Below are positions 23,157 to 49,229 of a stretch of DNA of 64,000 bases, piece by piece. Source of the stretch: a virus; IMG/VR virus record IMGVR_UViG_3300046167_000876; one strand, given 5' to 3'. Under the pieces are notes generated by a model. It did no database searches. It had not been told where the DNA came from and worked only from the letters and a program-made list of their open reading frames with translations. Each line of letters begins with the position of its first letter. Position 1 is the stretch's first letter. Position numbers and translations under genes: made by a program.

Positions 23157-23702
23157 ATGATTAAATTAGTAGATCTATTAAATGAAATAGATATCCCTAA
23201 AAATAAATGGGTTACTATTCCCGCCTCTGAACTAAAAGACTATAGTGAAGAAATCTATAAATTAATTGACAATGCTTATGCACCAATTGGTGGTCATCCC
23301 AACTATAAATCCGCGGACAATGTATCAGGTAGTGAATCCGATGCAGAATATGAAATAATTGATTTAGACGATGACCCTGAAATTGATGCAGTATCCGCTT
23401 CTAAACTTAAAGCCGCAGGTAAAAAATTTACAGCAACAGGACATGATGGATCTAAACCAGCTAAATCCAGTGTTGTAAATCATAAGGCAAATCAATTAAA
23501 ATCTGGAGGGTATTATGTTGAGGTATCAGGTGTAATAAAAGATATATTTAAAGCTAAAGGTGTAGAAGCTATTGATGATGAAGAATTAGTACGTAAAGTA
23601 CTTAAAGGAAAAGAAATTGAGTGGTTAGGTAATGGAGAATATAAAAGAACAATTGGTGGTAAAGAATTTACCAAAGCATTAATGGGAAAACCAACAGTAT
23701 GA
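23157..23702 (+). CDS. Hypothetical protein with leader MIKLVDLLNE (putative capsid-internal protein)
   Basis: 10-aa leader ending in L-x-E, similar to MISLVQLLRE of the next gene. Confidence 0.55.
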   Translation: MIKLVDLLNEIDIPKNKWVTIPASELKDYSEEIYKLIDNAYAPIGGHPNYKSADNVSGSESDAEYEIIDLDDDPEIDAVSASKLKAAGKKFTATGHDGSKPAKSSVVNHKANQLKSGGYYVEVSGVIKDIFKAKGVEAIDDEELVRKVLKGKEIEWLGNGEYKRTIGGKEFTKALMGKPTV

Positions 23703-24496
23703 TAAGTTTAGTACAATTATTAAGAGAAGCACAAGGTAGCCCAAAAGCGGTTATCTTAGCAGGAGCACCTGGAGCAGGTAAAGGATACATTTTACGTGGT
23801 TTAGACTTAGGAGGTCTAAAAGTAATGAATGTAGATGATATTTATGTTCCTTTACTAAAAAAAGCTAATGTTACATTAGATTTAAAAAATGCAACACCCG
23901 AAGAAAGAAGTGAGCAAGCTAAACAAATGGCAGCCGCTAATAAACAATTCAAAGGTGAAATGGAACAAATAATAGCAGGTAAAGAATCGTTTATATTAGA
24001 TGGTACCGCTGCATCATATAATACCACAGCTAAACTAAAAGCTGAGTTAGATGAAGCGGGATATGATGTGTTTATGCTATACGTGTATACTGATTTAGAA
24101 CGTTCATTAAGCCAAAACCAAGACAGATACGTAAAATCAGGAGGTGAAGATAGAAGTTTAGCACCCGCAATTGTAATGCGTACTTGGAAAAGTGTGACAG
24201 ATAATTTACCTAAATATGAAGAATTATTTGGTAATAATTTTGTAGCAGTAGCTAACACATTAGATGATAGAATGCAAGATATAGATAAAATTATAAAAAA
24301 ATATCTTAAACCATTTACTCCTCAAGGCACTAAACCTAAAACACCAGCTCAGCAAAAGAAATCTGATGAGCGAAAGGCTAAGGACAAAGAAGAAATTCAA
24401 GCTATGTTAGCTGACGATTTTATATATGATGTAATTGAATACACTATGTCTAAGGAAGAAGCACAAATGAGATTAAAACAATTCTTATCTAAATGA
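23699..24496 (+). CDS. Zeta-toxin/AAA_33-like P-loop kinase with leader MISLVQLLRE
   Basis: AVILAGAPGAGKG, NVDD, FILDGT, MLYVYTDLERSLSQN..R. Confidence 0.75.
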   Translation: MISLVQLLREAQGSPKAVILAGAPGAGKGYILRGLDLGGLKVMNVDDIYVPLLKKANVTLDLKNATPEERSEQAKQMAAANKQFKGEMEQIIAGKESFILDGTAASYNTTAKLKAELDEAGYDVFMLYVYTDLERSLSQNQDRYVKSGGEDRSLAPAIVMRTWKSVTDNLPKYEELFGNNFVAVANTLDDRMQDIDKIIKKYLKPFTPQGTKPKTPAQQKKSDERKAKDKEEIQAMLADDFIYDVIEYTMSKEEAQMRLKQFLSK

Positions 24497-26505
24497 GTTT
24501 AGTAAATGAATTAATAAAAGGGTTATTACCTGAAGAGGAAAAAAAGAAGGTAGTAGCAGTATATGGTGGTGGTTTTAAACCACCTACATCTGGTCACTTT
24601 GAAGTTGTAAAGCAAGCACTTAAAGAAAATCCCGAAATAGATGAATTTATTATTTTAATAGGTGGTAAACCAAGAAATGGTATTACACCTGATGAATCTA
24701 TTTTAATTTGGGATATCTATAAAACATACTTACCATTTAAAGTTGAAGTAAAATATACATCAGTACCTCCTATAAAAGGTATTTATAATTATGCTAAAGA
24801 ACACCCAGATGAAGAAGTATTATTCATTATTGGTGCTAGAGAAGGCAATGAAGATGATTTTGCTGATATAGCAACTAGAACAAAATCTTTAGATAAATAC
24901 CCAAATTTAAATTTACGTACTATTGTAACACAAGGTGGTGTTTCAGGTACAGCAGCTAGAAATGCCTCTAAAATATCATTAGATAAATTTAAATCATTTG
25001 TCCCATCTGAATTATCAGATGAAGAAGTTGAACAAGTATATAATATAGTAGCAGATAAAATTCAAGAAAATAAACCACAAGATGGTAAAGCTGCTCCTTA
25101 TGGTTCAGGATATGATGAGGTAGAAGAGGGCAGAAAAAAGAAAAAAGATCCTAAAAAAGGTACAGGCAAAAAACCTAAAAAATCTGAACGTAGATTATAC
25201 ACAGATGAAGATCCAAAAGATACTATTGGTATTAAATTCTCTACTAGACAAGATATAGTTGATACTTTAAATAAAAAATCATTTAAAGCTAAATCACATG
25301 CTAGACAATCTCAGATTATTAATTTAATCCATCAAAGAGTAAGAGCGGCATATGGTAGAGCTAAAGACCCTGCTGTTAAAAAACGTTTAAAAACTGGTTT
25401 AGATTATATTACTAAGAAAAAAGAAGCATCTAAAGCTAAAACACAACGTTTAAAAAAACAAAAACTAAAAGAAAATGCATCATATACTAATAATATTGAT
25501 ATCATGAAAATGATAGATGATTTTACTAGATATATGATATATAATGGAATGAATATTACTCCATTACCTACATTAGAACTTAAGGATGGAGATACAGAAA
25601 ATGCTAAAGATTTTTTTGGTAAAACAGCTTATTATGATCCAAATAAACAACATATTGTTTTATATACAGAAGGTAGACACCCTAAAGATATAGTACGTTC
25701 ATATGCACATGAAATGATACATCATATTCAACATCTAGAAGACAGATTAGGAGATGTAGCAGGTACAGATACAACTAGTTCAGAACATTTAACTAAATTA
25801 GAAAAAGAAGCTAATTTAAAAGGTACAATGACATTTAGAAATTGGACTGATACTATTTTAAATGAAGGTAAGAAAAAAGACCCATTTGGTTTAATGGCAT
25901 ATGCCCAAGAATTAGGTCGTTTAAGAGAGGAAGAAAGCGAATATAAAGTTTATTTAGATATGGATGGTGTATTAGCTGATTTTGATCAACGTTTTAGAGA
26001 TTTATCTGGAATGGAACCACGTGATTTTGAAAACAAGTATGGTAAAAAAGCATTTTGGAACCTTATAGACGAGGAAAATAAAATTAAATTTTGGGTTGGT
26101 ATTCCCATAATGTCCGGTGCTGCTGATTTAGTAGATGCTGTTAAAGATTATAATTATGAATTATTAACATCACCATCAGCTAAAAAGCAATCTTATTTAG
26201 GAAAAATACTTTGGGTAAAAAATCATACAGGTAACGTGTTCCCCTCAAAACCTCGTATTAACTTTAAGAAGGCAAAGGAGAAACACCTTGTTAAACCACA
26301 ATTAGCAAAAACAGATATTCTAATTGATGATAGAGAAGATACAATTGGAAGATGGAATACAGCAGGGGGTACAGGTATAGTATATAAAAACATAGGTCAA
26401 GTATTAAGTGATCTTAAAAAATTAGGTTTAGTGAGTCAAAAATTAGCAGGATTAAAAAAAGAATTTAAAGAAAAAGATGTTGAACCGTTTAAGAAATTTA
26501 AATAA
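24493..26505 (+). CDS. Modular polyprotein: HIGH-type cytidylyl/nucleotidyltransferase, basic domain, HEXXH metallopeptidase-like domain, HAD 5'-nucleotidase. True stop is probably near 26430.
   Basis: YGGGFKPPTSGH..GVSGTAAR; RSYAHEMIHHIQ; VYLDMDGVLADF..LLTSP..ILIDDREDT. Confidence 0.75.
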   Translation: MSLVNELIKGLLPEEEKKKVVAVYGGGFKPPTSGHFEVVKQALKENPEIDEFIILIGGKPRNGITPDESILIWDIYKTYLPFKVEVKYTSVPPIKGIYNYAKEHPDEEVLFIIGAREGNEDDFADIATRTKSLDKYPNLNLRTIVTQGGVSGTAARNASKISLDKFKSFVPSELSDEEVEQVYNIVADKIQENKPQDGKAAPYGSGYDEVEEGRKKKKDPKKGTGKKPKKSERRLYTDEDPKDTIGIKFSTRQDIVDTLNKKSFKAKSHARQSQIINLIHQRVRAAYGRAKDPAVKKRLKTGLDYITKKKEASKAKTQRLKKQKLKENASYTNNIDIMKMIDDFTRYMIYNGMNITPLPTLELKDGDTENAKDFFGKTAYYDPNKQHIVLYTEGRHPKDIVRSYAHEMIHHIQHLEDRLGDVAGTDTTSSEHLTKLEKEANLKGTMTFRNWTDTILNEGKKKDPFGLMAYAQELGRLREEESEYKVYLDMDGVLADFDQRFRDLSGMEPRDFENKYGKKAFWNLIDEENKIKFWVGIPIMSGAADLVDAVKDYNYELLTSPSAKKQSYLGKILWVKNHTGNVFPSKPRINFKKAKEKHLVKPQLAKTDILIDDREDTIGRWNTAGGTGIVYKNIGQVLSDLKKLGLVSQKLAGLKKEFKEKDVEPFKKFK

Positions 26506-27000
26506 CGGGTAATATGGAGAAAAAACTCGTTCTAGTGTTGGATTTACTAAAGCCAGACCAAATTTATAATGAAGGAGATACTTGGGAAGCAAAATGGTCG
26601 CACTTGGACTATAAAAGAAGGTATTAAACAAAATATTACCTAAATTAGATAAAGCTAAAAAAGCAACATATAATGCCCCTACTTTGTCACTAAATGTAGT
26701 AAAATAATGAAACGTTAGATAAACCTTACTTATAATTTTACATAATATTGTTTAATTGTATAGCTAAAGCTGAATAAATAAAAGCGAGTAAATACATGAA
26801 GAAATTAAAAAAATTAAATAAAAATTTTAGATATAGATTAGAAGAATTTAAACAATTTGTTAAAGAAAAAATAAAGAAAGTAATGATTCCTTTGTATCTG
26901 AAAATGGGAGAGTAGAAAAATGGGTAGGTAAAGTTGATAAAACTAGAGCAGATCAATTTACAAAAGATATTATTGAACATTTAAATTCATTTAAAAAATA
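26431..27000 (+). pseudogene. Frame-disrupted gene, probably error-rich sequence, for a protein with possible CxxC-type zinc sites
   Basis: Fragments in shifting frames: LKKEFKEKDVE, EKTRSSVGFTK, YNEGDTWE, GRTWTIKEGIKQNIT, LDKAKK, MPLLC..KC, CLIV/CFNC-like. No intact ORF. Confidence 0.45.
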
Positions 27001-27032: not shown

Positions 27033-28739
27033 ATGAAAGATAACTTTGATGTCCATAAATGGAACTATAATAGATACTTAAAAGAAGCAATGGGTCTTGA
27101 TATTGATAAATCAGGAGGAACGGATGATATAGACCAAGATGATATAGATGGGTCTTTAAATGTAACTCGTGGTGGAGATGATCCTAAAATTGGGGCAGAA
27201 GAAGAATCTGATAGTAATGTAGTAGGAGAAAATAAATCTTACCTAGAAAAATTAGCTAAATATTTAAACAAAACATACCCAGAATTAACATGGGAAGTTA
27301 GATTTGGAGAAAGAATTGATGCATATGGTTCCCAAAGTGATTTATTTAAGTTTGGAAATAAATATCATGGTAAAAAATTTGGGGACTACGAAGTATTTCA
27401 CGTAGATGATGATGACAGATTAGATATTGTTCGTGTTGTTAAATCTTCTAAATTAAGAGGAGGTATAAATGAAGCAAGTTATATGTACAAAGGATATAAA
27501 GACAAGCATTTTGATATTTGCCCTGGGGCTGAGGCATTAAGAGATAGATTATTAGCTGGTGAATTTAAAGATAATAATTGGGCTACAGGAACTGATTTTG
27601 AAAAAGAAGTAGGTGAATGGCTTTATCAACATGACGTAATATTTGGTATTGAAAAAAAGATTATAAAAGATAAAGAAGGTGATGAAAGTGATATAGCTAA
27701 AGCTAAAGAAGCTGAAGGTAGAGTTGTTAACTTATCTCGTGATTTAGGTATTCCGGCTTCTGAAATAAATGCTTATCTTCCTGCTCATATTAAAACCATT
27801 AAAGATATGGTTGAGTATAGTTCATTAACTGAAAGTATTAAAGAAACACTTCGTTTTATTAAAGAAAACAACCCAGATTTTACAAACGAGGAAATTAAAG
27901 CTGAACTTAAAGAAATTAAAGCTTTAGGTGAACAGCTAAAAGAAGAAATGTGTAAAAGAGGGAAAAATTATATGGCAGCTAGAAAAAAAGCAGGTGAAAA
28001 ATCTTCAGCTTATCTATCTGGCCGTGCCGTTAAAGTTTGTAAGGGTCAGATTAAAGGATCTGATGGTAAAAAGAAAAAATCATTTGAGTCTTTAAATGAA
28101 GTAAATAATTCTGATATTGTTAAAGCTTTAGCTAAAGTAGTAGACATGGAACCTAAAGATGTTGTAGCTAAAATAAATGCAGATAAAGAGGAAGTAAATG
28201 AAATAGCAATTACAACCGCTATCACTATTGCAGGTCTTCTTCCAGCGGCTATGGAATTAGTAGGTGGTGTTTTTAATAAAGCTAAAAATTCTTTTAAATT
28301 AGATGAAAAAGAAAAAACAGAATATTTAGCATTACAACAATTCTACAAGGAAGCAAAAGATAAAGATGAAAAGAAAAGACTTAAAAAAGAAATGGAACCC
28401 TATGAATCTAAAATAGGAAACTGGTTTAAAGATGCGGGGCATTCTTTACACAAAGCTTATACAACTCCTATTAGAGGGTTACTATGGATGGCTTATAAAC
28501 TTGCACCTAAAGATTCTAAGTTCCATAAATTTTTAAGTGATAAAGAAAACAGAGAGAAAGCAGCTAATGTTATTTATGCTGCTGCAATGATTGGAATAGC
28601 AGGATATGGGGTTGCTTCACATATAGGACATTTAAAAGGTGTATCTGATGTAGCTATTACTATTGCAGATAGTATTAAAGGAGGCAAAAGTGTAAAAGAT
28701 GCTGCTTTAGGTGGTTTAGAATTACTTGGTTTAGTATAA
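27033..28739 (+). CDS. Modular putative internal head polyprotein (leader MKDNFDVHKWNYNRYLKE) with hydrophobic C-terminal domain
   Basis: DNF-type leader; junctions YLKE|, GINE|, SLTE|, QLKE|, SLNE|, EVNE|. Confidence 0.55.
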   Translation: MKDNFDVHKWNYNRYLKEAMGLDIDKSGGTDDIDQDDIDGSLNVTRGGDDPKIGAEEESDSNVVGENKSYLEKLAKYLNKTYPELTWEVRFGERIDAYGSQSDLFKFGNKYHGKKFGDYEVFHVDDDDRLDIVRVVKSSKLRGGINEASYMYKGYKDKHFDICPGAEALRDRLLAGEFKDNNWATGTDFEKEVGEWLYQHDVIFGIEKKIIKDKEGDESDIAKAKEAEGRVVNLSRDLGIPASEINAYLPAHIKTIKDMVEYSSLTESIKETLRFIKENNPDFTNEEIKAELKEIKALGEQLKEEMCKRGKNYMAARKKAGEKSSAYLSGRAVKVCKGQIKGSDGKKKKSFESLNEVNNSDIVKALAKVVDMEPKDVVAKINADKEEVNEIAITTAITIAGLLPAAMELVGGVFNKAKNSFKLDEKEKTEYLALQQFYKEAKDKDEKKRLKKEMEPYESKIGNWFKDAGHSLHKAYTTPIRGLLWMAYKLAPKDSKFHKFLSDKENREKAANVIYAAAMIGIAGYGVASHIGHLKGVSDVAITIADSIKGGKSVKDAALGGLELLGLV

Positions 28740-29014
28740 TGACACAAAATAGGATAACAGAAATAATACGTGAATCTTTAAAAGATTGGTTTGGCAAAGA
28801 AGATTGGGTCCGAATCAATACATCAGGTAATATAGCTGGTAAGTGTGGTACAATGAAAAAAGGCAAAGCTACAACAAGATGCTTGCCTAGAAAGAAAGCA
28901 CAATCACTTACTAAAGCAGAGCGTAAAGCTACTGTAGCTAAAAAAGTACGTGGTAGTAAAAAAGGCAAACAGTTTGTAAAAAACACAGACAAAGCTGAAT
29001 TTAAAAAGAAATAA
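28739..29014 (+). CDS. Small basic phage protein (SLKDWF..EDWV..CG..RCLP type) with leader ending IIRE
   Basis: Motif recognisable from aquatic phage hypothetical proteins. Confidence 0.55.
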   Translation: MTQNRITEIIRESLKDWFGKEDWVRINTSGNIAGKCGTMKKGKATTRCLPRKKAQSLTKAERKATVAKKVRGSKKGKQFVKNTDKAEFKKK

Positions 29015-29817: not shown

Positions 29818-30645
29818 ATGGACAACTTTAATTATCAAGCTTATCTTAAAAGTGGCAAAATCCACGGAGAAAAAGCAATTTTAACCGAATCAGAACAAGT
29901 TTCTGAAAAAAAATACAAGCAAGGATATGACGATAGAGAAGATGAATCTCTAGGCGCACGTAGAGGTGCTGAAAAAGGCAAAAAACAATCTATGAAAGAT
30001 CGTAGAGACGATTCTTATGGAAAATTTGGCAAACGTGATGCTGAAAAAAAAGGCAAAAACAAAGTTAACAAAGAAAGCTTATCAGAAACTATTGCTGAAG
30101 CTAAAGCTAAAATTGATGAGGGTTCTTACCCATTTGATCAATGTTTGGTTGATAATGAAGGTAAATATGGTAAAAAAGGTGCTGCTAAAGTATGTGGTGC
30201 TATTAAAGCCCAATATGGTGAAGGTATTGTAAATGAAGATGCTAGAACTGATGCTGAACAAGAAGGATATAAAGATGGGTTTGAAGATGCTAAAGATGAT
30301 ATTGAAGGAGCATTAAAGAAAATGAAAGTATCTGAACTTAAAGATAAAATTAAAACTGAAATTCTAAGTAACTTATCAGAAGCTGAAGAAGAAGTAGACG
30401 TTGATATTGATGTTGAAGACGAAGTTGAAGTAGAAGCAGGAGCTGACGATATTGAAATCGAAAGACCAGGAGTTAAAACAACAGTAGATGTTGGTTTATC
30501 CCCAGAAGAAGAAGTAGTACAAGATTCTTTAAAAGCTGCAATGGATGCTGCTAATGAATTAGGTAACCAAAAATTAGCTGATCAAATTGGTAATACAATT
30601 ACTTTCTTTACAAGAGAATTTGTAGTTGGTCAAAATACTGATTAA
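29818..30645 (+). CDS. Putative prohead core/internal protein sharing a module with the scaffold
   Basis: Leader MDNFNYQAYLKSGKI; EDARTDAEQEGYKDGFEDAKDDIE..MKVSE also occurs in ORF 49962-51134. Confidence 0.6.
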   Translation: MDNFNYQAYLKSGKIHGEKAILTESEQVSEKKYKQGYDDREDESLGARRGAEKGKKQSMKDRRDDSYGKFGKRDAEKKGKNKVNKESLSETIAEAKAKIDEGSYPFDQCLVDNEGKYGKKGAAKVCGAIKAQYGEGIVNEDARTDAEQEGYKDGFEDAKDDIEGALKKMKVSELKDKIKTEILSNLSEAEEEVDVDIDVEDEVEVEAGADDIEIERPGVKTTVDVGLSPEEEVVQDSLKAAMDAANELGNQKLADQIGNTITFFTREFVVGQNTD

Positions 30646-30648
30646 TAC

Positions 30649-33066
30649 ATGCTTAACGAACGTAAACTTACGGAAAGAGAACTAGATAAACGTGCTGAAG
30701 TAATTCAAGGTTTGTTGTCCAATAAACGCACACTAGTTAAAAAGTACGGAAAGGATGCGGAAAAAGTAATGTATGGAATCGCAACTAAACAAGCTAAATC
30801 TAAAGTGGAAAACATGAATAAAGAAAAAATTAAAGAATTAATACAACAAGCCATAACTATACCTTCAACCCCTTCTTTAGAAGAAGGTCATGGTTTGGAT
30901 CAAGGTGATTTAGATATTCTACAAAATTTTGTAGACAGATTAGGAGCAAAAGATCGACAAATAAAAAAAATACTTAAGTTTATTCTTAAATCAAACATAT
31001 TACAAGACAAAACAAAAGATTTATCTAAAGGTAAAGTCAATGAAAATAGATATGACCTAGATGATCCTAATTCTCCTTTAAGTAAATTGAATGATAATGA
31101 CAAAGATGTAGCTATACTAAACAATATGACTAAAAAGTATGGTAAAGATGTTGTTTTAATGTGGATGTCAAGTGGAGAATATGGAGGTAGAAAAACCACC
31201 AAATCCGGCATAGAATATGTTTCTGAAGATCTAGATGTAGGACATCAAGACAACGAACCTCACATGCTTAAAAAAGAATTAGCTAGAGCAGGTCAAATGA
31301 TACAAATGCTTTATAGAGCAGTAGATAACTATGATGGTCAAGGTGAAGTAGATTTCCCACAATGGTGGCAAGCTAAAATTATCAAAGCAAATACCATGTT
31401 AGATAGTGCTTTTGATTATTTAGATGGTGAAGAAATGGTGGCTAAAATAGATGCTATGATTGATGGGGCAGATGAAGTTGAAGTGGACATTGATGTTGTT
31501 AATGAAGATGAAGTACAAAAAAGACTTGATGCTGAAAAAGCAATTAAATCAACACTTAAAGATGAAGGTGGAGCCGCTGGTATAAAACCATTAGCTAAAG
31601 CTGTAAAAAAATTAGATATTAGTAAAGATGAACTACTTAAAATGATTAAAAAAGTAGTTGGTGTTGCTAAACATAAACATGGAGATTATATTTCAACCCC
31701 TATAAATGAAAATGTAGATAAAAAATACAGTGATTTCCTATTAGCCTTAAGAGACTCAGGTGTAACTAATATGTTCGGTGCTGCTCCTTACTTACAAACA
31801 GAATTTGGTTTAGATAAAAGAGAAGCAAGAGAAATCTTAGCTAACTGGATGAAATCATTTAATGAAGGAATCGACTATGATGAAGCTTTAACATTAAGAG
31901 GAATGTTAGCTGATTTAAAGAAAGAAAGAGAGCAATTATTTAGAGACATGGAGCAAGAAGCTGAACCAGAAGGTGGGCCAATTGCTGATAGATACGGTGA
32001 TGAATTAAATAAAGTTGAAGACCGTATGTATAAAATTGCCAAACAACTTCGTGATTATGATATGAATGAATCACAAGAAGTAAAAGAAAATTATACCAAA
32101 GAAAAACTACTAAAAAAATTAGGCGATGCAGACGATGCTCGTATTCAAACTGGTAATGGAAGAGAATATATAGTATACAATCCTAACTCTAATAATGATG
32201 ATAATGCTGCTATGTGGCATGATGACTCAGTATTCGCTGTTGATCAAGACGGAGGCGAACATGAAATAAATTATAGCGATATAGGGTTAGTTATGGTAGA
32301 GGAATCATTAAACGAAGCAATGGATGGTGGTCGATTATTTGATTACTTTAATAAAAAATATGTAGTAGATGATCATTTTCATAGTGATGATAGTTACATT
32401 GTTAAAAGAGAACCATCTGGAAAAGATCAATATGTAATATTTGATTACGATAAAGATAAAGATCAATTCCAAATTAGACAAATGGGTGGTTATAGAATCG
32501 ATCAAAAAGATGCTATTAAAGCTGGAATGAGAGAAACAGGTATTACACGTGTTGCTGGGATAGATTCTTATATGGTAGATGGTAATTACTCACCAACTCC
32601 TATTTCAATTGAAGGTTTAAAAGATATAGTTGATCATGTAATGGGTGGTTTAAGTAGAGAAGCAGCTGCTCAACAAGATTATTATGCTAGAAGAGGTAAA
32701 ACTTCAGGTACTATAGATGAAAAAATATCTAATGCGGTAAAAGAAAAACTAACCAAATCATCTTCAGTAGAAGATCATGTTGAAGATTTTAAAGATTCAG
32801 ATGCACCTCAATTTAAAGGTAAATCATTAAAGAAAATCAAGCAAATGGCTTTAGCATCATTTTTATCAAAACAAGGTAAAAAAAAAGTAGCTGAAGGGTT
32901 TAAAGTAGGTCAAAAAGTAACTTATCTAGGACACCCAGCTGAAATCACTAAAGTTAACAAAGAAATGACTGGTGCTACTACTTATAATGTATTATATGAT
33001 AAGGGTAATGGTAAAACTAAAGCATCAAACCTTTATAATAAAGGTGGTGAAATAAAAGCTGTATAA
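30649..33066 (+). CDS. 805-aa modular putative internal head polyprotein
   Basis: About ten short unrelated segments delimited by MLNE|, SLEE|, KVNE|, YVSE|, VVNE|, PINE|, SFNE|, DMNE|, SLNE|, AVKE|, KVAE|. Confidence 0.55.
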   Translation: MLNERKLTERELDKRAEVIQGLLSNKRTLVKKYGKDAEKVMYGIATKQAKSKVENMNKEKIKELIQQAITIPSTPSLEEGHGLDQGDLDILQNFVDRLGAKDRQIKKILKFILKSNILQDKTKDLSKGKVNENRYDLDDPNSPLSKLNDNDKDVAILNNMTKKYGKDVVLMWMSSGEYGGRKTTKSGIEYVSEDLDVGHQDNEPHMLKKELARAGQMIQMLYRAVDNYDGQGEVDFPQWWQAKIIKANTMLDSAFDYLDGEEMVAKIDAMIDGADEVEVDIDVVNEDEVQKRLDAEKAIKSTLKDEGGAAGIKPLAKAVKKLDISKDELLKMIKKVVGVAKHKHGDYISTPINENVDKKYSDFLLALRDSGVTNMFGAAPYLQTEFGLDKREAREILANWMKSFNEGIDYDEALTLRGMLADLKKEREQLFRDMEQEAEPEGGPIADRYGDELNKVEDRMYKIAKQLRDYDMNESQEVKENYTKEKLLKKLGDADDARIQTGNGREYIVYNPNSNNDDNAAMWHDDSVFAVDQDGGEHEINYSDIGLVMVEESLNEAMDGGRLFDYFNKKYVVDDHFHSDDSYIVKREPSGKDQYVIFDYDKDKDQFQIRQMGGYRIDQKDAIKAGMRETGITRVAGIDSYMVDGNYSPTPISIEGLKDIVDHVMGGLSREAAAQQDYYARRGKTSGTIDEKISNAVKEKLTKSSSVEDHVEDFKDSDAPQFKGKSLKKIKQMALASFLSKQGKKKVAEGFKVGQKVTYLGHPAEITKVNKEMTGATTYNVLYDKGNGKTKASNLYNKGGEIKAV

Positions 33067-33068
33067 TA

Positions 33069-33539
33069 ATGACTAAAGCAGAATTAAGAGAAAAAATTAA
33101 AACATTAGCAGTACAAGTTATGGCTGAAAAAGCTAAAACTGATGATGCTGCCTTAGCTTATGATGAGTTAGTTAAATTCCCAGCTTTAAAAGATATTATA
33201 GTGGATCTATTAACTGATCAATTTGATTCATTTTTAGAATCAGTTGATTGGGTAGCTCCACGTCCTACAACTTTTCGTATAAATTTGTTGAATGGGCAAA
33301 ATTTCTTACTTATGTTTACGGACAGAAGTTGGATAGGACAAGTACAAGGAAAAAAATATTATTTACTAAACCTCGATGAGGAAGAAAGATGTGCTCTAGC
33401 GATTAACAGACTTCTAAGAGTAGGACCCGCTAGTGGTGCTGAAATGGAGGGAGAAGCAAGTGAAACTGATACAACAACAGACACAGCTGATACCAAAGTT
33501 GAAGATGAAGTAGATGTTAACGTGGACGTAGAAGCATAA
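33069..33539 (+). CDS. Hypothetical protein with acidic C-terminal VEDEVDVNVDVEA tail
   Basis: 156-aa ORF in the operon. Confidence 0.55.
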   Translation: MTKAELREKIKTLAVQVMAEKAKTDDAALAYDELVKFPALKDIIVDLLTDQFDSFLESVDWVAPRPTTFRINLLNGQNFLLMFTDRSWIGQVQGKKYYLLNLDEEERCALAINRLLRVGPASGAEMEGEASETDTTTDTADTKVEDEVDVNVDVEA

Positions 33540-35554: not shown

Positions 35555-36847
35555 ATGTGTAACTGCGGATGTAATACTTGTGAAACAAAAGGACCTTTAT
35601 TAACAGAAGGTAAAGTTAAATCTTTACTATCTGAAGGTCTTCAATATCACATAGATAAAAAAATACCATTATTTGAAACAGTATATCGTATTGGTTCAGA
35701 AAAACATCTATCTTTAATTAAAGAAGCTAGAAAAATGTATTCACGTAATATAATCGATTTATGTGAGGAAGATGAAGCATTGATTGGTACAAATTTAGGT
35801 GAATTTGCTTTATATGAAGGCGAATCTGTACCATTAGATTTACCTATGTTAAATGAATCAGATTCTAACTACCCAGATTTTGATTTAAATAAAAACATAA
35901 GATACCAAGATACATCTATTTCAAGCGGAATGTGGAGATATACAGGTAAAGAACAAGGTGGAAAAGGTGTTTATAGAAATTTAAATAATGGTCAAATATT
36001 AGGCTTTGATAGAAGTGATTTTGATATATTTAGAAACAATCTTAGTAGCCATTTTGACATTTCAGAATCAATTAATGAAGATATATACGATAAATTTTTA
36101 GATAATCCATCTTCACCAAAGGGTAGAGCGAAATCATTAATATTAAAGTTTACAAAAGAATATGGAGATGATGCTTCATCAATGGCTGTAGATAGATTCG
36201 CTAGTAAAAACAACCTAAAACCTGAAGAAAAGTACATATTAAAATATATTACTAAAAACGATATTAAAATATCTTCACAACCAGGAGGACCAGATTTCTC
36301 GGCATTAAATGAAAGTCAAGCAATAATTACTTTCAAAAATGATTATGAAGTTAAAATGAATACCGGTGAAGGGTATGACGATGACTTTGAATATTTTGAA
36401 GCGGGTGAAAGAGAGCAAGTTTATATCTTAGATAAAAATGATAAAAGAGTGCATGTTGAATTTGGTGACGGAACTAATGCTTATATTCCAACAAGTTTAA
36501 TATCAATTCAAGATAAATTATTAAATGAAGATGAGCAATTAGACGAAAAGAAAAAGGCTAAGAAAAAAGAAAAAAAAGACCCACCATTAAATAAACCAAA
36601 ACGTGGTGGTTCAAAAGCATATTATGTTTATGTACGTGATCCTAAAACTAAAAAGATTAAAAAAGTATCATTTGGATCAGGTGGTTTAAGAGCTAAAATT
36701 AAAAACAAAGAAGCTCGTACTGCATTTGCCGCTAGACATAATTGTAAAAATAAAAAAGATAGAACTAAAGCAGGATATTGGTCATGTAATTTACCAAGAT
36801 ACGCTCCAGCATTAGGATTAGGTGCTAAAATGAATACTTTCTGGTAA
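35555..36847 (+). CDS. Modular putative internal head polyprotein: N-terminal MCNCGCNTC, C-terminal basic KKVSFG..FAARHNC..AGYWSC domain
   Basis: Junctions LLTE|, LLSE|, MLNE|, SINE|, ALNE|, LLNE|, QLDE|. Confidence 0.6.
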   Translation: MCNCGCNTCETKGPLLTEGKVKSLLSEGLQYHIDKKIPLFETVYRIGSEKHLSLIKEARKMYSRNIIDLCEEDEALIGTNLGEFALYEGESVPLDLPMLNESDSNYPDFDLNKNIRYQDTSISSGMWRYTGKEQGGKGVYRNLNNGQILGFDRSDFDIFRNNLSSHFDISESINEDIYDKFLDNPSSPKGRAKSLILKFTKEYGDDASSMAVDRFASKNNLKPEEKYILKYITKNDIKISSQPGGPDFSALNESQAIITFKNDYEVKMNTGEGYDDDFEYFEAGEREQVYILDKNDKRVHVEFGDGTNAYIPTSLISIQDKLLNEDEQLDEKKKAKKKEKKDPPLNKPKRGGSKAYYVYVRDPKTKKIKKVSFGSGGLRAKIKNKEARTAFAARHNCKNKKDRTKAGYWSCNLPRYAPALGLGAKMNTFW

Positions 36848-36848: not shown

Positions 36849-37097
36849 ATGGATCCATACGTAAATAAAGGTAACATAAGAACGTTTTCGAAAGATGTAA
36901 ATAAACTAGAACTAGTTTGGCATCAAGACTCTGAAGATAGAGATATCGAAGTATTAGAAGGTAAAGGATGGGAATTACAAATGGATAACGAATTACCCTT
37001 TGAATTAGTAAAGGGAGATCGTATATTTATAACAGAAGGTAGAATACACCGAATATTAAAAGGTACTACTGATTTAAAAATAAAAATAAATGGATAA
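36849..37097 (+). CDS. Small cupin-fold protein
   Basis: WHQD.EDR.I.VLEG.GW..GDRIFITEGRIHRI. Confidence 0.6.
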   Translation: MDPYVNKGNIRTFSKDVNKLELVWHQDSEDRDIEVLEGKGWELQMDNELPFELVKGDRIFITEGRIHRILKGTTDLKIKING

Positions 37098-37695
37098 TTT
37101 TGATTTAAAAAAATATTTAGCTGAAGGTAAATTATATGAAACAATTAATCTTGATATAGAAGATGATATAGCATACCTAAGTGGAGATTCAGGTGAATAC
37201 GAAGGTGAAATTGAAGATGGAAAGACATCTTTTTCTGTTATATATGATGATTTAGATTATAGAATATCAGATAGATATGATGAAAGTAATATTGAAGATT
37301 TTTTAGGTAGAGGTCATGCATTTGTAGAATTAGCTAAAAAATATGACCATAATTGGGATGTTGAACGTGATTTAGTTGGTATAACAATAAAATTAAAAGA
37401 TTTAGCTGAAGGTAGACTAGAAAAAGAAATGGGTGATAATAGACCTCCTGAGAGGTTAAAATTAGATCCTGACTATGATAAAGGTGGTAAATACTATAGT
37501 GAAGAAGGTGCTGAAGCTTTTAGAATCCAACCTTTTAAAGTAAACGATATTGAATATACTCAAGACCAAGCAGTTAGACAAGGTAAATATATTGTAGGAT
37601 TAGAAGGTGAAGAACTAAAAAAATTTATTTCTGATTACATGGCAGCATGGAAAGAAGATGTAGGAGATACACCTGAAGGAAAAACTTTTAAATAA
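37090..37695 (+). CDS. Acidic protein with MDNFDLKKYLAEGKLYE leader and an internal LAEGRLEKE
   Basis: Shared leader. Confidence 0.65.
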   Translation: MDNFDLKKYLAEGKLYETINLDIEDDIAYLSGDSGEYEGEIEDGKTSFSVIYDDLDYRISDRYDESNIEDFLGRGHAFVELAKKYDHNWDVERDLVGITIKLKDLAEGRLEKEMGDNRPPERLKLDPDYDKGGKYYSEEGAEAFRIQPFKVNDIEYTQDQAVRQGKYIVGLEGEELKKFISDYMAAWKEDVGDTPEGKTFK

Positions 37696-37701: not shown

Positions 37702-38301
37702 ATGGATAACTTTGATTTAAAAAAATATTTAGCTGAAGGAAGACTATTTGAAGAAGATTTTAAAAATCCAATTCTAGATAAATATTTAGAACTAAAAAAA
37801 TCAATAGATAACAATACAGCTTTTGAATATGAACTATCAGATTTTATTAATGATTTAGATAATACTGAACGTGAGGGATTAGAAAGCGATTTAGGATTAG
37901 AAAGAGATGAGTTATATGAAGGTAAGCTCTTTGAACAAGAAAGATATAAAAAAGTAGAGGATGATGCGCAAGATGGTACCTTTTATGTTTCCGGATATGA
38001 TATGGAAAATGAAAGGGACATTGAGGATTATTTTGTTGATCTTGATTATGGTAAATATAAATCTGCTACTCAAGAATTATTAGATCTTGCTATGGAACAA
38101 GGACACGAGTATGAAAGTATAGAAGATTATTACGAATATGTTGAAGGATTTGAAAATGATCTAAAAGATTATGCTGAAGGTGAAGAAGTACCTGATTGGA
38201 AGATGAATGATCTAGCTATGCGTTATGGAACTGATTATAGTCAATTTTACGGTGAAGAAGAAGATGAAGACTATGAAGAAGAAGAATATGAAGATTATTA
38301 A
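37702..38301 (+). CDS. Highly acidic protein with MDNFDLKKYLAEGRLFEE leader and an internal LYEGKLFEQE
   Basis: Shared leader; C-terminus GEEEDEDYEEEEYEDY. Confidence 0.65.
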   Translation: MDNFDLKKYLAEGRLFEEDFKNPILDKYLELKKSIDNNTAFEYELSDFINDLDNTEREGLESDLGLERDELYEGKLFEQERYKKVEDDAQDGTFYVSGYDMENERDIEDYFVDLDYGKYKSATQELLDLAMEQGHEYESIEDYYEYVEGFENDLKDYAEGEEVPDWKMNDLAMRYGTDYSQFYGEEEDEDYEEEEYEDY

Positions 38302-38806: not shown

Positions 38807-38830
38807 AACGTGTTAAAAATAAAAGTATAG

Positions 38831-40127: not shown

Positions 40128-40144
40128 AATATATTTCGTATATT
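40115..40144 (+). promoter_or_regulatory. Bacteroidota-type promoter TTTGG-N15-TTCGTATATT
   Basis: Exact consensus; upstream of 40162. Confidence 0.7.
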
Positions 40145-40161
40145 TAAAATAAACAAAAATT

Positions 40162-40428: not shown

Positions 40429-40431
40429 GAT

Positions 40432-40988: not shown

Positions 40989-41756
40989 ATGAAAAAATCT
41001 GAATTAAAAAATTATATCAGAGAAAATATTATCTCTACATTATCTGAAGATACTGAGGCAGAAATTGAAAAAACTAAAGAATTAACCTCAGCAATCAAAG
41101 ATCTTGAAGCTGCTAAAAAAGAAGCGGGTATAGAAGAAGATGCAACACCAAAAGGTGAAGACTTTTTTTATGATTATTTAGATATTGGCATGTCTTATTT
41201 AGAAGGATTTGGTAAAAAACATTCTTTAGATGATAGTCAGTTAGAAAAACTAGGTAAAAAAATAGTAGACCAATTATATAAAGGTGATGTTGGTAAAGCA
41301 TATGATGCCATTGTTAAAAGAGGTGTAATGAAAGAAGATAAAGGTGGGAATTTTGCTGAATTAAAAAAACACCAAAAAATGCTTAGGGATGCTTCTTTAT
41401 TTTATATAAATAAGGCAGAAAATTTAGGTATTGAAAATGTTAATAATTTAATACAAGCATTTAATAAAGGAGTAAATGGTTTAGAAGATGCTATTTTTAA
41501 AGCTGACTATAAAAGAACAGATGGTAAAATAGACGAAAATGAAGATAAAGAACCATCTAAATCTGATATTAAAAAAACAAAAGGTTTAGCTAAAGCAAAA
41601 GAAGAATTAGCTTTATTAACTCGTGAAATGAAGTCCTTAGCTAAAAAATATTCTAAAGCTGAAGGTGAAGAAAAAGAAAAATTAGTTAAAACTTTAAAAA
41701 AGAAAACTAAATTAAAAAAAGAACTAGAAAGTATTCTAGATAAAAAGAAAATATAA
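40989..41756 (+). CDS. Modular putative internal head protein (leader MKKSELKNYIRENIISTLSE)
   Basis: Junctions TLSE|, GIEE|, VMKE|, KIDE|. Confidence 0.5.
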   Translation: MKKSELKNYIRENIISTLSEDTEAEIEKTKELTSAIKDLEAAKKEAGIEEDATPKGEDFFYDYLDIGMSYLEGFGKKHSLDDSQLEKLGKKIVDQLYKGDVGKAYDAIVKRGVMKEDKGGNFAELKKHQKMLRDASLFYINKAENLGIENVNNLIQAFNKGVNGLEDAIFKADYKRTDGKIDENEDKEPSKSDIKKTKGLAKAKEELALLTREMKSLAKKYSKAEGEEKEKLVKTLKKKTKLKKELESILDKKKI

Positions 41757-45917: not shown

Positions 45918-45924
45918 TTTTTAT

Positions 45925-45933: not shown

Positions 45934-45948
45934 ATAAAATATTTTTTA

Positions 45949-46812
45949 ATGAATATTAAACACTCAAAATACAAAAATACAGGAATTCTTTTTGAATTAC
46001 TAGTACGCCAAATTACTGCTGATACTCTTAAAGGTAGTAATTCACCCGCTATAGATATATTAAAAGAATATTTTGTTAATACTTCTTTAGGAAAAGAATA
46101 TAAACTGTATGAATCTATACTTAAATCTAAAGTAATAACTGAAGGTAGAGCTACATTAGTTATTGATACTTTATTAGAGGCATCTACTAAATTTAATAGA
46201 AAATCTTTAAAAAAACAAAAGTATAATTTAATTAATGAAATTAAAAAACATTATAATTTAGAATCCTTTTTTGGTTCTAAAATTACAAATTATAAAGAAT
46301 TAGCTGCTTTATATACTTTAATAGAAAATATTAATTCTAAATCTATATCAAATCCAACACAGTTAGTTGATAATAAAATTACTTTATTAGAACATTTAAC
46401 TAAAAAAGAAGTTACTCAAGATTCAAAACAAACAGTACTTGAAGAATTTTCTACATATGATAAAGATGTAAGAACCCTTACATATAAAGTATTATTGGAA
46501 AAATTTAATGATAAGTATGATAATTTAACCCCACAACAAAAACAAATTCTTAAAGAATATATTAATTCTGTAGATTCAACTCCTGATTTAAGAAATTTTT
46601 ACAATTCTAAAATTATAGATTTAAAATCTATGCTAAAAGAATCAATTAAAAATATTAAAGATAAAGCTACTCAAGTTAAAATAGTTGAAGTATCTAAATT
46701 TTTAGTTGAATTGAAAAAAACAGATAAAGTTGGAGATGATAATTTAGTTGATTTGTTGCGTTACTATCAATTAATAAATGAAATACAAATAGCAAATGGC
46801 TCTCAAGTATAA
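45949..46812 (+). CDS. Conserved head-module protein (possible prohead core component)
   Basis: MNIKHSKYKNTGILFELLVRQI; lies between portal and protease. Confidence 0.55.
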   Translation: MNIKHSKYKNTGILFELLVRQITADTLKGSNSPAIDILKEYFVNTSLGKEYKLYESILKSKVITEGRATLVIDTLLEASTKFNRKSLKKQKYNLINEIKKHYNLESFFGSKITNYKELAALYTLIENINSKSISNPTQLVDNKITLLEHLTKKEVTQDSKQTVLEEFSTYDKDVRTLTYKVLLEKFNDKYDNLTPQQKQILKEYINSVDSTPDLRNFYNSKIIDLKSMLKESIKNIKDKATQVKIVEVSKFLVELKKTDKVGDDNLVDLLRYYQLINEIQIANGSQV

Positions 46813-47584
46813 ACTTAAAGAAGCACCTTCTCCTAATTTAGCTAACCAAGTTGGAGCTAAAATTGGTGATGTATCTTATTCTAAAGATGGAGATACTAAA
46901 TTTATAGTTAATTCTATAGATAAAGAAACAGGTCAAATAGGATGGAAAGTAATTGAACTCCCAGCATTTGATAAATTAAATGATGATGTAGATGAATTAG
47001 TTTCCACAGCTAAAGGAGTTTATACTAAAACCAAATCAGACGAAGAGTTTAGAAAAATATACGAAGAAGCTAGATTATTAAGAAATAAAATTAGAAAACA
47101 TCTTCGTAATGAATACCCAGATGAGTACAAAAGAATGACTATGGAAGGGGAAATTGAAGAAATGTCTACTACGGGAGGTGGAGCTGGGTCAGCTAGTTTT
47201 ACTAGTGGCACAGGAATGCAGTATGCTACACCTTATGCTTTTAAATTACCTAAAAAACAAAAAAAAATTGTACCTGAAGGTAATGAAGAAGCTATTACTT
47301 ATTTTCAACAAGCAATAAAGTTAAGTCATACTAATAAAGTAAGAAACCTTATATTAAAAGCTGCTAAAGAATTAGGGTTAGAAATCCCTAAAGTATGGAC
47401 AGAAACTGTAAATGAAAATAACAAAAACCCAGGAGCAACATTAGGCCCAGGCCCTAAAGCAACAGAGGATGGAGTTAAAGATAATGCATATGTAAAACAA
47501 TTTAAATACAAATTAGTTCCTAAAACAAAAGATGGTACTTATGTACAGAAAGGTTCAGGGCTCGAAGTAAATAAATTATTTTAA
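46796..47584 (+). CDS. Modular head-region protein (leader MALKYKLKE)
   Basis: Junctions KLKE|, EIEE|, TVNE|. Confidence 0.5.
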   Translation: MALKYKLKEAPSPNLANQVGAKIGDVSYSKDGDTKFIVNSIDKETGQIGWKVIELPAFDKLNDDVDELVSTAKGVYTKTKSDEEFRKIYEEARLLRNKIRKHLRNEYPDEYKRMTMEGEIEEMSTTGGGAGSASFTSGTGMQYATPYAFKLPKKQKKIVPEGNEEAITYFQQAIKLSHTNKVRNLILKAAKELGLEIPKVWTETVNENNKNPGATLGPGPKATEDGVKDNAYVKQFKYKLVPKTKDGTYVQKGSGLEVNKLF

Positions 47585-47585
47585 T

Positions 47586-47819
47586 ATGTATAATCGTAAT
47601 ATAAAAGAAAACGAAGATAAAGCATCTAAATTCCATGAGGAACGTATAGAAGCTTTTGATAAATTAGAAGCTAGATTTGAAGATATTAAAAAAGCAATCA
47701 AACTAGGTAAAATAGAAACAATAAAATACTATAGAGATAATCCTAATAGTTTTAGTGTTGTAATAGGCACAGATATGATTAACGATTATTTTAACGACAT
47801 TGAAACATTATTACAATAA
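47586..47819 (+). CDS. Small hypothetical head-region protein (MYNRNIKE leader)
   Basis: 77-aa ORF; its ATG lies within an ATATGTATA motif. Confidence 0.5.
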   Translation: MYNRNIKENEDKASKFHEERIEAFDKLEARFEDIKKAIKLGKIETIKYYRDNPNSFSVVIGTDMINDYFNDIETLLQ

Positions 47820-47828
47820 ATATAAATT

Positions 47829-49229
47829 ATGAAATCACCAGAAAAATTACATAAGGAATTAACAGAAAAATTAATTACTGAAAATTATATTGATTTAAAC
47901 CCAATTACAACTTTTGAAGCAACTCCAAAAGCGGATTTTGAAACTAAGTTTGCTCAGTTTTTAGCAGAAAAAAAAGGGGAAGAATTAAAACCTGTTGTTA
48001 ATACAGATGAATCAATTAATACTCTAAAAGATTCAGAAGGAATATCTGCAGATTCTAAAGCTAAATTTGAAGGTAAAGGATTTCAAGCTTCTTATAAAGT
48101 AGATAAAACTTTAGAAAATATTGATTCTCATAATTATGATTATGATACTACTATAGAAAATATTAATAATGTTAATGGTGAAGAATTACTAAAAGGTGTT
48201 CAATTAGAAACTAGTTATAATAGTGAATTAACCTTAGATGAAGCTAAAGAGCTTGTAATTAAAAATTTATCTAAAGACCCTTTACATTATGTAAAAGAAG
48301 GTCAATTTGGTGTTAAAGGTTTAGGATACACAGAAGCTAAAACACAAAAAGTAGATGGTAAACATGCCGCTAGTGGTTATAGTGAAAAACTAAAAGATAG
48401 TGATAATACATTTGATTTAGTAAAAGAAAACTATAGTTTTGATGAAGCAAGAGAAAGAGCAATTGAAGCTTCTCAAAGAGAAGCAGGAATTGAAGAAGAT
48501 AAAAGACCAGATTATCCAGATGTAGATGGAGATGGTGATACTAAAGAACCAATGGAAAAAGCACTTAAGGATAAAAAAGAAAAAAAGAAAAGAATGAAAA
48601 AAGAAAGTATAGATTCTAAATTAGCTGAAATAGGAAAAGAAGCAGAAGCTGTAAAATTAGAAGCTCAGTTAGATTTTTTACATGATCATATTCAAGAAAA
48701 AGTAAATAGAGTTAGTTCAATTCAGGAAGATGAAAATTTAAGTGAATTAATTGACAAAGTCAAAATGAAACAAATGCAAAAAGAAATCAAGCTTTTAGAA
48801 AAAAGAAAAGCTAAGATGGAAAAAATTTACGAAAAATCTTGTGGTAAAAAATATGCTAAAAAAGAAATGGTAGATGAAAATGAAGTAGAATCTATTAATG
48901 AAATTGGTGCAAATGATATGGTTGTAAGCTATAGAGATGAGGAAAAAATTCCTATTAAGTTTACAGGTTTTGAAGCTTTTGATGGAAGAGATGGTGGACA
49001 GGATACAACAGACAATCAAGGTAGATTTGTTGTAAGAATGAAAGCTGAAAGAGTTGATGGCCAAAAATTAGCAGGCAAGGATAAATTCTCAGTTCAGGTA
49101 GTGACTAACCCAGGTGTTTCTAAAATAACACCAGATGGTACTATTCCCTTTCCTGATCATGATAGATACTCTTCACCAGAAGTTGTAGATTATGGAAATA
49201 CTATTAAATATATAAAAGATAATATTTAA
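47829..49229 (+). CDS. Modular putative prohead core/internal protein with a DxDxDG Ca-binding-like loop
   Basis: PDVDGDGDTKE; junctions LITE|, FLAE|, LVKE|, GIEE|, SINE|. Confidence 0.55.
   Translation: MKSPEKLHKELTEKLITENYIDLNPITTFEATPKADFETKFAQFLAEKKGEELKPVVNTDESINTLKDSEGISADSKAKFEGKGFQASYKVDKTLENIDSHNYDYDTTIENINNVNGEELLKGVQLETSYNSELTLDEAKELVIKNLSKDPLHYVKEGQFGVKGLGYTEAKTQKVDGKHAASGYSEKLKDSDNTFDLVKENYSFDEARERAIEASQREAGIEEDKRPDYPDVDGDGDTKEPMEKALKDKKEKKKRMKKESIDSKLAEIGKEAEAVKLEAQLDFLHDHIQEKVNRVSSIQEDENLSELIDKVKMKQMQKEIKLLEKRKAKMEKIYEKSCGKKYAKKEMVDENEVESINEIGANDMVVSYRDEEKIPIKFTGFEAFDGRDGGQDTTDNQGRFVVRMKAERVDGQKLAGKDKFSVQVVTNPGVSKITPDGTIPFPDHDRYSSPEVVDYGNTIKYIKDNI

Follow-up and report, generated by a model that had tools for sequence, protein, structure and literature searches.

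Portable N-terminal leaders ending in L/I-x-E as candidate capsid-targeting propeptides in an uncultured marine T4-like phage clade

The IMG/VR virus record IMGVR_UViG_3300046167_000876 was analysed over a stretch of 64 kb (the window; G+C about 30%, with nearly all genes on the + strand), which belongs to a distant T4-like myophage, uncultured and marine, and in which a series of open reading frames (ORFs, named here by their first coordinate) start with short leaders ending in L/I-x-E. It is probable, in our judgement, that these leaders, like those of the T4 internal proteins, are capsid-targeting propeptides, used here on a larger scale: there is more than one family of leaders, and the cargo set is large, exchangeable and mostly acidic. 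An initial annotation had proposed, for many ORFs of the interval 23157-49229, a set of effector domains packaged into the head as polyproteins, i.e., an expanded T4 internal-protein system; the evidence from the leaders, the cargo bodies and the fusion joints speaks for this proposal, and the general density of the motif speaks against it.

The leader families, each ending in I/L-x-E, include leader A (MDNFDLKKYLAE/G, with the slash at the predicted cut), leader B (MKKSELKNYIRE), leader C (MIKLVDLLNE), leader D (MERLRKLIKE) and leader E (MKELYRFRQFLTE), as well as the variant MADNFDLRKFLTE of the cultured Flavobacterium phage vB_FspM_immuto (immuto), among whose leaders are MENFDLKKFLVE, MADNFNLRSFLTE and MENNFDIHKW..FLKE, and in which immuto_188, 190, 193, 194 and 201 bear related leaders. 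Leader A was searched for with a degenerate DNA pattern for MDNFDLKKYLAEG, which begins 105 ORFs across 87 IMG/VR stretches; in all, the related IMG/VR contigs hold about 150 ORFs that start with this leader, and the bodies behind it, most of them acidic, are of about 70 unrelated kinds. Its residues 14-18, [KR]L[LFY][KE]E, are conserved though absent from the search pattern, and the proteins are unrelated from residue 19 on. Since the leader codons vary synonymously (GAT/GAC 86/19, TTC/TTT 55/50, Leu15 TTA/CTA 52/42) and the DNA upstream of them is merely A-rich, selection on the peptide is indicated. Among 1239 ORFs of the window and the related loci (L numbers), 9664 pairs with unrelated bodies share the N-terminal 12-mer (at least 8 of the 12 residues), compared with 11 pairs each for the internal and the C-terminal 12-mer controls; the pair count for leader A is biased because the loci were fetched through it, but families B to E emerged though they were not used for the fetching. 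Leader B was found in 39 ORFs with unrelated bodies, including 40989, and leader C in nine ORFs, including 23157, with a variant at the start of 23699. The same cargo may be found under swapped leaders: the body of 23157 carries leader C in the window and in L010, and leader A in L080, L012, L013 and L015. In all of the 150 ORFs starting with M(x)DNF[DN] a site is retained between residues 8 and 26, even in the 12 variants without Glu12, and most leaders have predicted tandem cleavage sites.

A complete relative of 166 kb (G001) was used for the whole-genome context. In its block adjoining the head genes, an N-terminal [LI]xE is present in 25 of 37 genes, against 46 of 195 elsewhere (p=7e-7), and a small second late unit bears leaders C and A among other genes. 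The S77 prohead protease is encoded on four of the five long leader-bearing records, the fifth being a fragment. In the window itself, every one of the short hydrophobic-x-E N-termini quoted in the initial annotation is present at its ORF, and [ILVM]-x-E ending at residues 4-20 was counted in 17 of the 30 ORFs of the interval 23157-49229, where 8.8 +/- 2.3 were expected from per-protein shuffling (p~0.001); outside the interval the count is nine of 29 ORFs against 6.3 expected, in a set that includes the protease, scaffold and capsid. No match to the 22-aa leader was returned by tblastn among cultured phages, the query being too short, and a literature search for the leader peptide gave no match. 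No Pfam or PHROG match to T4 internal proteins was obtained for the tagged ORFs, most of which lack any Pfam or PHROG match. A further recurrent peptide, ..F[KR]RMQKLAG[IL]I[TN]E, also ending in I-x-E, occurs close to the start of several small proteins of unrelated sequence (L072 1957-..., G001 26280-26561, 102806-103264 and 110728-111222, L001 4780-5244), and in one ORF of L072 it directly follows leader A.

The cargo bodies avoid the very motif in which the leaders end. In 72 non-redundant leader-A bodies (1026 Glu), [LI]-x-E was counted 82 times against 137 expected (0.60), with the dip only at offset -2 (0.82 to 1.19 at the other offsets), and [LI]-x-D 210 times against 138 (1.52), which gives an E/D bias with a Fisher odds ratio (OR) of 0.34 (p=4.5e-16); the controls, other proteins from this phage, stood at 1.10 of expectation for [LI]xE and 1.17 for [LI]xD (p=0.75). 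The sum of L-x-[DE] is normal in the leader-A bodies, so that Asp must have taken the place of Glu in this motif. T4 gp21 is known to cleave after L/I-X-E, with Asp at the cleavage position blocking the processing (PMC9026906). The bodies behind leaders B and C are biased in the same direction, in small samples. Among the single genes, [LI]xE accounts for 0/16 Glu in the body of 33557 (pI 4.1), 0/13 in 38331 (against [LI]xD in 6/11 Asp), 0/15 in 23157 (6/13) and 2/28 in 40989 (6/19), and in the body of 37702 it occurs at the fusion joint only. Most cargo is strongly acidic, with a median pI of 4.3. The opposite picture, more [LI]xE than [LI]xD, is given by the scaffold (13/72 Glu vs 3/55 Asp), the capsid (6/24 vs 1/24), the protease (5/16 vs 2/11) and ORF 35555 (12/30 vs 4/33), and most strongly by 45949. 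The two classes, motif-poor cargo and motif-rich core, are seen in the T4 record as in the window phage: the T4 internal-protein bodies have LxE at 1/21 (the sole case being ITE at residue 19 of IPI) and LxD at 5/25, the motif-rich class comprises gp22 (16/47 vs 0/13), gp21 (7/17) and gp23 (8/31 vs 0/26), and gp17, gp18 and gp20 are flat.

The enzyme that would act on these sites is encoded in a head module of the T4-type gene order (portal, core ORFs, protease, scaffold, capsid). The gp21-like assignment of ORF 49231 made in the initial annotation was confirmed by Pfam PF03420 (E=7.7e-29, score 101 vs a cut-off of 27 bits) and PHROG 207 (E=8e-59), which place it in the gp21/S77 family, and its N-terminus MSKSLLIET has LLIET in common with MNEPQLLIET of T4 gp21. 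The same annotation had pointed to the cleavage motif near the N-termini of the protease and the capsid, which is present and conserved in orthologues: the protease carries LLIE8 and QLTE21 (conserved in nine orthologues), and the propeptide region of the capsid carries LLE8 and VVEE59. The scaffold-like protein between them is 19% Glu, with a pI of 4.2. The nearest cultured relative is immuto, with a capsid 56% identical and a syntenic layout; at the nucleotide level, no cultured phage matched the head module in a megablast search.

The leader genes sit in units headed by the same promoter-like motif as the portal and tail genes. This late motif (ATTTATAATAAA), noted already in the initial annotation, is real: 23 matches were found against 7.1 expected, a count reached by none of 100 shuffles, and copies stand directly upstream of 23157, 27033, 35555, 40989, the portal gene, 45949 and the tail genes. 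Several genes of the interval are non-members of the system (the lipoprotein 29016, 33973, 35234, 36849, the block 38831-40962, 41756, 42021, TerL and portal), and the ORFs 45949-49229 are read as prohead-core proteins. A second promoter-like motif, TTCGTATATT (38790-38830, 40128-40161 and 57440-57493), stands upstream of 38831, 40162 and 57494, and in immuto upstream of the PhoH gene; the genes behind it may be insertions between the late units, with the motif as their early or middle promoter. The block 38831-40962, which contains oxidoreductase-like and AAA_28 ATPase genes, is probably outside the system because it is preceded by this different motif. The lipoprotein-like ORF 29016-29792 (MKKFLILLLGLLLTGCG.., pI 11.1, a single Glu) lies without a leader amid tagged genes of a late unit, and no homologue of it was found in the related loci.

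The idea of polyproteins, in which large ORFs would be strings of modules joined at the motif, is partly supported by the sequence comparisons. A general enrichment of the motif within large ORFs was rejected, its density being that of the background both inside the interval (178 observed vs 154 expected) and outside (147 vs 121); the simple enrichment check suggested in the initial annotation thus fails in that form. The module structure is real in 24493, 29818, 30649, 35555, 37090 and 37702, and the joining of modules at the motif holds for 37090, 37702, 30649, 24493 and 29818. Two approaches were applied to the joints, one based on the boundaries of high-scoring segment pairs (HSPs) and one on linkers in AlphaFold2 (AF2) models with a predicted local distance difference test score (pLDDT) below 50; by the HSP-boundary test the motif sites of 27033, 35555, 40989, 46796 and 47829 showed no association with module boundaries.

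The clearest fusions are 37090 and 37702. In the former, residues 1-103 correspond to free-standing ORFs in L018 and L020 and residues 105-201 to a free-standing leader-A ORF in L058 (94% identity), with the joint sequence ..KLKDLAEGRLEKE; in the latter, residues 71-199 correspond to a free-standing leader-A ORF in L057 (95% identity), with the joint ..DELYEGKLFEQ. Many such internal leader remnants occur in the related loci, where the N-terminal half has decayed and LAEG[KR]L..E is retained, which fits a targeting half that is of use at the N-terminus alone, and a processing half that is still needed inside the chains. The mosaic 24493 consists of an N-terminal module with GGGFKPPTSGH, a basic module (aa 219-322) that stands free in L042 behind the leader MISLTEILNE, a module containing HEMIHH, and a 5'-deoxyribonucleotidase (aa 481-650), residues 480-646 being matched by free-standing ORFs in L014 and L010; five of its eight motif sites are at homology boundaries (p=0.013). 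The HEMIHH of the third module, at aa 405-411, is of the HExxH type. In ORF 29818, residues 138-275 match a free-standing ORF of L019 with a DNFD-type leader, and five of eight sites lie at homology boundaries (p=0.023). The modules of 30649 recur in L051, L022, L052 and L027, both reordered and as free-standing leader-A ORFs, two of them being adjacent in a 148-aa leader-A ORF of L051; 11 of its 15 interior sites fall into homology-boundary zones (p=0.01), and in its AF2 model, a beads-on-a-string structure with pLDDT 64, ten of the 15 sites overlap linkers (28% expected, p=0.0023), with an OR of 6 for motif over non-motif Glu (p=0.0055). The leader of 27033 resembles that of immuto_201 (MENNFDIHKW..FLKE), and the C-terminal part of this protein has Gly/Ala-rich hydrophobic segments (aa 395-425 and 510-535) like a membrane or glycine-zipper helix.

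Among the single tagged genes (Table 1), the product of 23157 was modelled by AF2 with pLDDT 88, and only residues 1-10, exactly the leader, were below 50; the top Foldseek matches listed were acetyltransferases or GNAT-superfamily entries. By prediction the leader is separable from the folded body here, residues 1-10 being unstructured in the model and the one body bearing two different leaders. The leader of 23699 is conserved in the orthologues of L052, L004 and L008, and the double I/L-x-E of 28739, the window protein closest in charge to the T4 internal proteins, in those of L036, L049 and L052. In 33069, L-[RK]-E at residues 6-8 is retained in six of the nine orthologues listed. The protein of 38331 is found on 41 metagenomic contigs, the longest of 161 kb, and its homologues bear Tara source labels.

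The motif-rich proteins form a class of their own. In 45949, [ILVM]-x-E is met at 16 of 20 Glu (binomial p=1.9e-6), and nine of the ten Glu invariant across 14 orthologues fit the motif. The following ORFs up to 49229 have the leaders MA.KYK[LI]KE and MY...[IL].E, conserved in orthologues, and all four ORFs of 45949-49229 occupy the T4 position of the core genes 67 and 68. As effector cargo these ORFs were rejected on account of this position and of the motif-rich 45949, and from their sequences they look like prohead-core proteins rather than effectors. A segment of 46796 (aa 120-144, IEEMSTTGGGAGSASFTSGTGMQYA) is identical in 16 of 25 positions to capsid aa 56-80 (VVEESNTGGGAGSGTFTAGTGAQWA; E=8e-7), which span the predicted maturation site; similar segments occur in immuto_198 and in G001 17830-18279. 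Docking or processing may be the common role of this segment, or the protein may be a vertex or decoy protein. In 35555, [ILVM] stands at position -2 of 13 of 32 Glu (p=0.0035), and PLLTEG is conserved in eight orthologues; its CxCGCxxC knuckle is at the extreme N-terminus, and in the relatives of the knuckle protein (G001 30352-31029 with leader D, MERLRKLIKE, and L006 12342-12983) a leader, MERLRKLIKE or MIKKHIQE, precedes it.

Table 1. Leader-bearing, core and head-module features of the window (slashes stand at predicted cuts)
Feature	Coordinates	Strand	Basis or remark
Late-type promoter-like motif (ATTTATAATAAA family)	23134..23145	+	copies at 27010, 35538, 40966, 44005, 45927
Leader C (MIKLVDLLNE) and GNAT-fold cargo	23157..23702	+	AF2, Foldseek
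Leader C (MISLVQLLRE) and Zeta-toxin/AAA_33-like P-loop kinase domain	23699..24496	+	Pfam PF06414 E=2e-17, aa 11-177
670-aa mosaic	24493..26505	+	PHROG 2643 E=1e-25
568-aa protein, leader variant MKDNFDVHKW..YLKE	27033..28739	+	late motif at 27010
91-aa very basic protein, leader MTQNRITEIIRE	28739..29014	+	pI 10.6
Degenerate leader-A protein (MDNFNYQAYL..ILTE), two modules joined at VNE140	29818..30645	+	
805-aa mosaic of some 8-9 shuffled modules, with [ILVM]xE sites at the joints	30649..33066	+	
156-aa acidic protein, N-terminus MTKAELRE	33069..33539	+	weaker candidate
Leader-A cargo (MDNFDLRKYLAE/G RLLKE/), acidic, 133 aa	33557..33958	+	leader hidden Markov model E=1e-12
430-aa motif-rich protein: CxCGCxxC knuckle, then PLLTE/G, basic C-terminus	35555..36847	+	
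Two fused leader-A cargo modules; joint aa 101-114 retains LAE/GRLEKE	37090..37695	+	homology to free-standing ORFs
Two fused leader-A cargo modules; joint aa 71-80 LYE/GKLFE/Q	37702..38301	+	
Leader-A cargo, acidic, 102 aa	38331..38639	+	leader hidden Markov model E=8e-14; orthologues aligned
Leader-B protein (MKKSELKNYIRE/N..LSE/)	40989..41756	+	late motif at 40966
Large terminase (TerL)	42429-44000		
Portal	44028-45917		
Candidate prohead-core protein	45949..46812	+	between portal and protease
ORFs 46796, 47586 and 47829, short conserved N-terminal x-K/I-x-E leaders; likely core proteins	46796..49229	+	
Prohead maturation protease, T4 gp21 family (Peptidase_S77)	49231..49836	+	Pfam, PHROG
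Acidic scaffold-like protein, T4 gp22 position, motif-rich	49962..51134	+	between protease and capsid genes
Major capsid protein, gp23-like	51176..52831	+	PHROG 138 E=7e-67

Two other regions of the window attracted attention. At 4417-15130 the G+C rises to 38-43% from about 30% elsewhere, and long ORFs are open in overlapping frames (4417-6522, 5471-15130 and several more) with highly repetitive translations, as would fit a giant fibre gene rich in repeats and possibly collagen-like. Directly upstream of the terminase gene there is an overlapping pair of ORFs, 41756-42139 and 42021-42425, the first with an N-terminal transmembrane segment and a coiled coil, the second starting inside the first and having a signal-like hydrophobic N-terminus, an arrangement that appears spanin-like.

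In the proposed mechanism, the short amphipathic N-terminal leaders of at least five families would direct late-expressed proteins into the assembling prohead core, and the gp21-family protease would remove the leader after Glu and would also cut the leader-derived joints of the fused multi-module proteins. The freed bodies, mostly small acidic proteins and a few enzymes (GNAT fold, Zeta-like kinase, 5'-nucleotidase), would stay in the head with the DNA, and a second class, that of the motif-rich core proteins (the scaffold, 45949, 35555 and probably 46796-47829), would be cut up instead. The sequence evidence behind this scheme concerns the protease family, the portability, swapping and protein-level conservation of the leaders, the late-type promoters, the motif avoidance in cargo and the motif placement at joints; from it we infer targeting, cleavage, retention in the virion and injection. 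A complex prediction with the protease alignment A1 and the cargo alignment A2 scored 0.00 and returned no answer, with no bearing either way.

Several observations weigh against the interpretation of the leaders as capsid-targeting propeptides. The portal and capsid do not avoid the motif, so that avoidance is not general to head proteins; the large ORFs have the background motif density, and P3 is Val or Met in several joints of 30649, where Leu/Ile has been reported for gp21. Beyond the ending [FY][IL]AE, no significant homology links leader A to the T4 capsid-targeting sequence (CTS). The acidic cargo is unlike the T4 internal proteins, for which lysine-mediated DNA contacts have been reported (PMC3012670), and looks awkward beside packed DNA. 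The 5'-nucleotidase and a nucleotidyltransferase-like module are also plausible as ordinary cytoplasmic enzymes, and the literature search found no virion study of immuto or Mel-JY01 and no proteomics of the clade.

The strongest rival, which we nevertheless consider unlikely, makes the leader proteins accessory parts of the prohead core or scaffold that are targeted and trimmed, serve assembly, e.g., head filling or size control, and are then expelled or remain inert, with no delivery to the host. It is favoured by the bodies being acidic like the scaffold (pI 4.2-4.4), by the position of the leader genes next to the head module, by the cleavage of the T4 core proteins gp22, gp67 and gp68 by gp21 (PMC9026906), and by the fact that 45949, 35555 and 46796-47829 do resemble core proteins. 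However, the leader-A bodies avoid the cleavage motif in which scaffold-type proteins are enriched, which points to bodies that must survive the protease intact, and about 70 unrelated, rapidly exchanged bodies, with enzyme-like cargo among them (GNAT fold, kinase, nucleotidase), fit an accessory or arms-race cargo better. A docking site outside the capsid (for a chaperone, modifying enzyme or host factor), or a localisation tag, with L-x-E being incidental, is less probable still, for five unrelated leader families all end in I/L-x-E, all 12 variants losing Glu12 regain a site a few residues on, the E-to-D bias of the bodies is specific to offset -2, the S77 protease accompanies the leaders on the long records as stated above, and no conserved modifying enzyme was seen beside the leaders in the Pfam and PHROG scans of the window.

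The remaining two explanations do without any role of the peptide. Leaders do sit at the breakpoints of shuffling and fusion, and mobile regulatory cassettes have been documented in T4-type phages (PMC4122927, PMC2839356), so that the leaders might be mere recombination linkers, i.e., conserved cassette-border DNA like PeSL elements. This is largely refuted and very improbable: the amino acids are constant despite frequent synonymous changes, the upstream DNA is not conserved, leader families of unrelated DNA share the same peptide logic, and motif avoidance in the bodies cannot stem from a DNA linker. The origin of the shared leader in conservation at the DNA level was rejected by the synonymous codon variation. 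As to chance in an AT-rich genome with proteins rich in Leu, Ile, Lys and Glu, the motif is short, its interior density equals the background, and a few of the leaders quoted, MLNE of 30649 and that of 33069, are weak, for which single members chance is possible; for the core set it is refuted by the N-terminal excess, the shared 12-mers over their controls, the E/D bias and the genome-wide clustering in G001.

A wider interpretation is held here as tentative only, namely that the clade runs a plug-and-play capsid loading, in which interchangeable leaders bring some enzymes and the small, mostly acidic proteins of at least 70 cargo families into the head, to be delivered together with the DNA, and leader-internal fusions make multi-cargo chains recut by the prohead protease. 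If it is true, the L/I-x-E-to-L/I-x-D signature would make packaged proteomes predictable from the sequence. For the acidic cargos, DNA mimicry or an anti-defence function is conceivable. Practical outputs of the analysis are a set of predicted natural encapsidation tags and a sequence-only test for exposure to a gp21-type protease (L/I-x-E avoided, L/I-x-D compensating), whose signature is also in the T4 record.

The T4 CTS is the textbook case of phage head-loading for injection, with only three or four proteins, and the same logic would operate here in a distant, abundant marine lineage with dozens of exchangeable cargo families, which points to a large, unexplored pool of candidate first-strike proteins against the defences of Flavobacteriia. 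Like T4 with its CTS-bearing IPI, IPII, IPIII and Alt, the window phage has a gp21-family protease beside the scaffold and capsid genes, a leader of 10-18 aa with the end [FY]-[IL]-A-E (MKTYQEFIAE in T4, MDNFDLKKYLAE in the window phage) that is common to unrelated bodies, and bodies depleted in L/I-x-E, with the scaffold, protease and capsid enriched. The leader is similar to the scaffold N-terminus in both: the T4 CTS MKTYQEFIAEA to gp22 MLKEQLIAEA, and leader A (MDNFDLKKYLAEGK) to the N-terminal part (MANNDLLKEAIADAK) of the window scaffold, which starts with MANNDLLKEAIAD; this suggests that leaders may mimic the N-terminal helix of the scaffold and co-assemble with the core. The differences are that the window clade has at least five leader families, against one in T4 and with no detectable homology to it, and predicted tandem cleavage sites in most leaders; that about a dozen ORFs are tagged in the window, the clade as a whole having about 70 body families, where T4 has its three internal proteins and Alt; that the bodies are mostly acidic and not DNA binders rich in lysine; that fusion of tagged cargos into chains of several modules, joined by leader remnants, is frequent, unlike in T4; and that the leader genes are directly upstream of the head module, where the T4 ip genes are scattered. 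Since neither leaders nor bodies show homology to the internal proteins, the likeness is a functional analogy within a homologous head-maturation machinery and not a membership in the cargo family. It is already established for the T-even phages that diverse internal proteins share a CTS (PMC3012670, PMC9026906), the only conserved part they have in common (PMC3012670); what the window clade adds is the scale, leader families that are unrelated to one another, a cargo of acidic character, fusions made through the leaders, and the E-to-D signature.

The phiKZ-like phages (phiKZ, 201phi2-1, SPN3US) have many head-internal proteins cut after Glu by a gp21-related protease (PMC9026906), and redundant sites are carried by their inner-body and ejection propeptides (PMC9026906; PMC5694885, PMC10052503). 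Their motif is S/A-X-E, against L/I-X-E here, and their propeptides are long and protein-specific, in contrast to the short portable tag of the window clade; their protease is a remote gp21 homologue, that of the window being a clear S77 match. The cargo-loading peptides of encapsulins are short portable tags, interchangeable between cargos, that bring varied cargo into a shell of the HK97 fold; they mostly sit at the C-terminus, attach directly to the shell protein and are not taken off by proteolysis, with no DNA or injection involved. The window leaders are likewise short and interchangeable and would serve for loading, but they are N-terminal and predicted to be cleaved. Viral polyproteins cut by a virion-associated protease have several units per chain with the motif in linkers, as in 30649, where ten of 15 sites are in predicted linkers; the window chains, however, are recent and variable cassette fusions, whose parts are also separate genes in sister phages, and not a fixed expression strategy like that of viral polyproteins.

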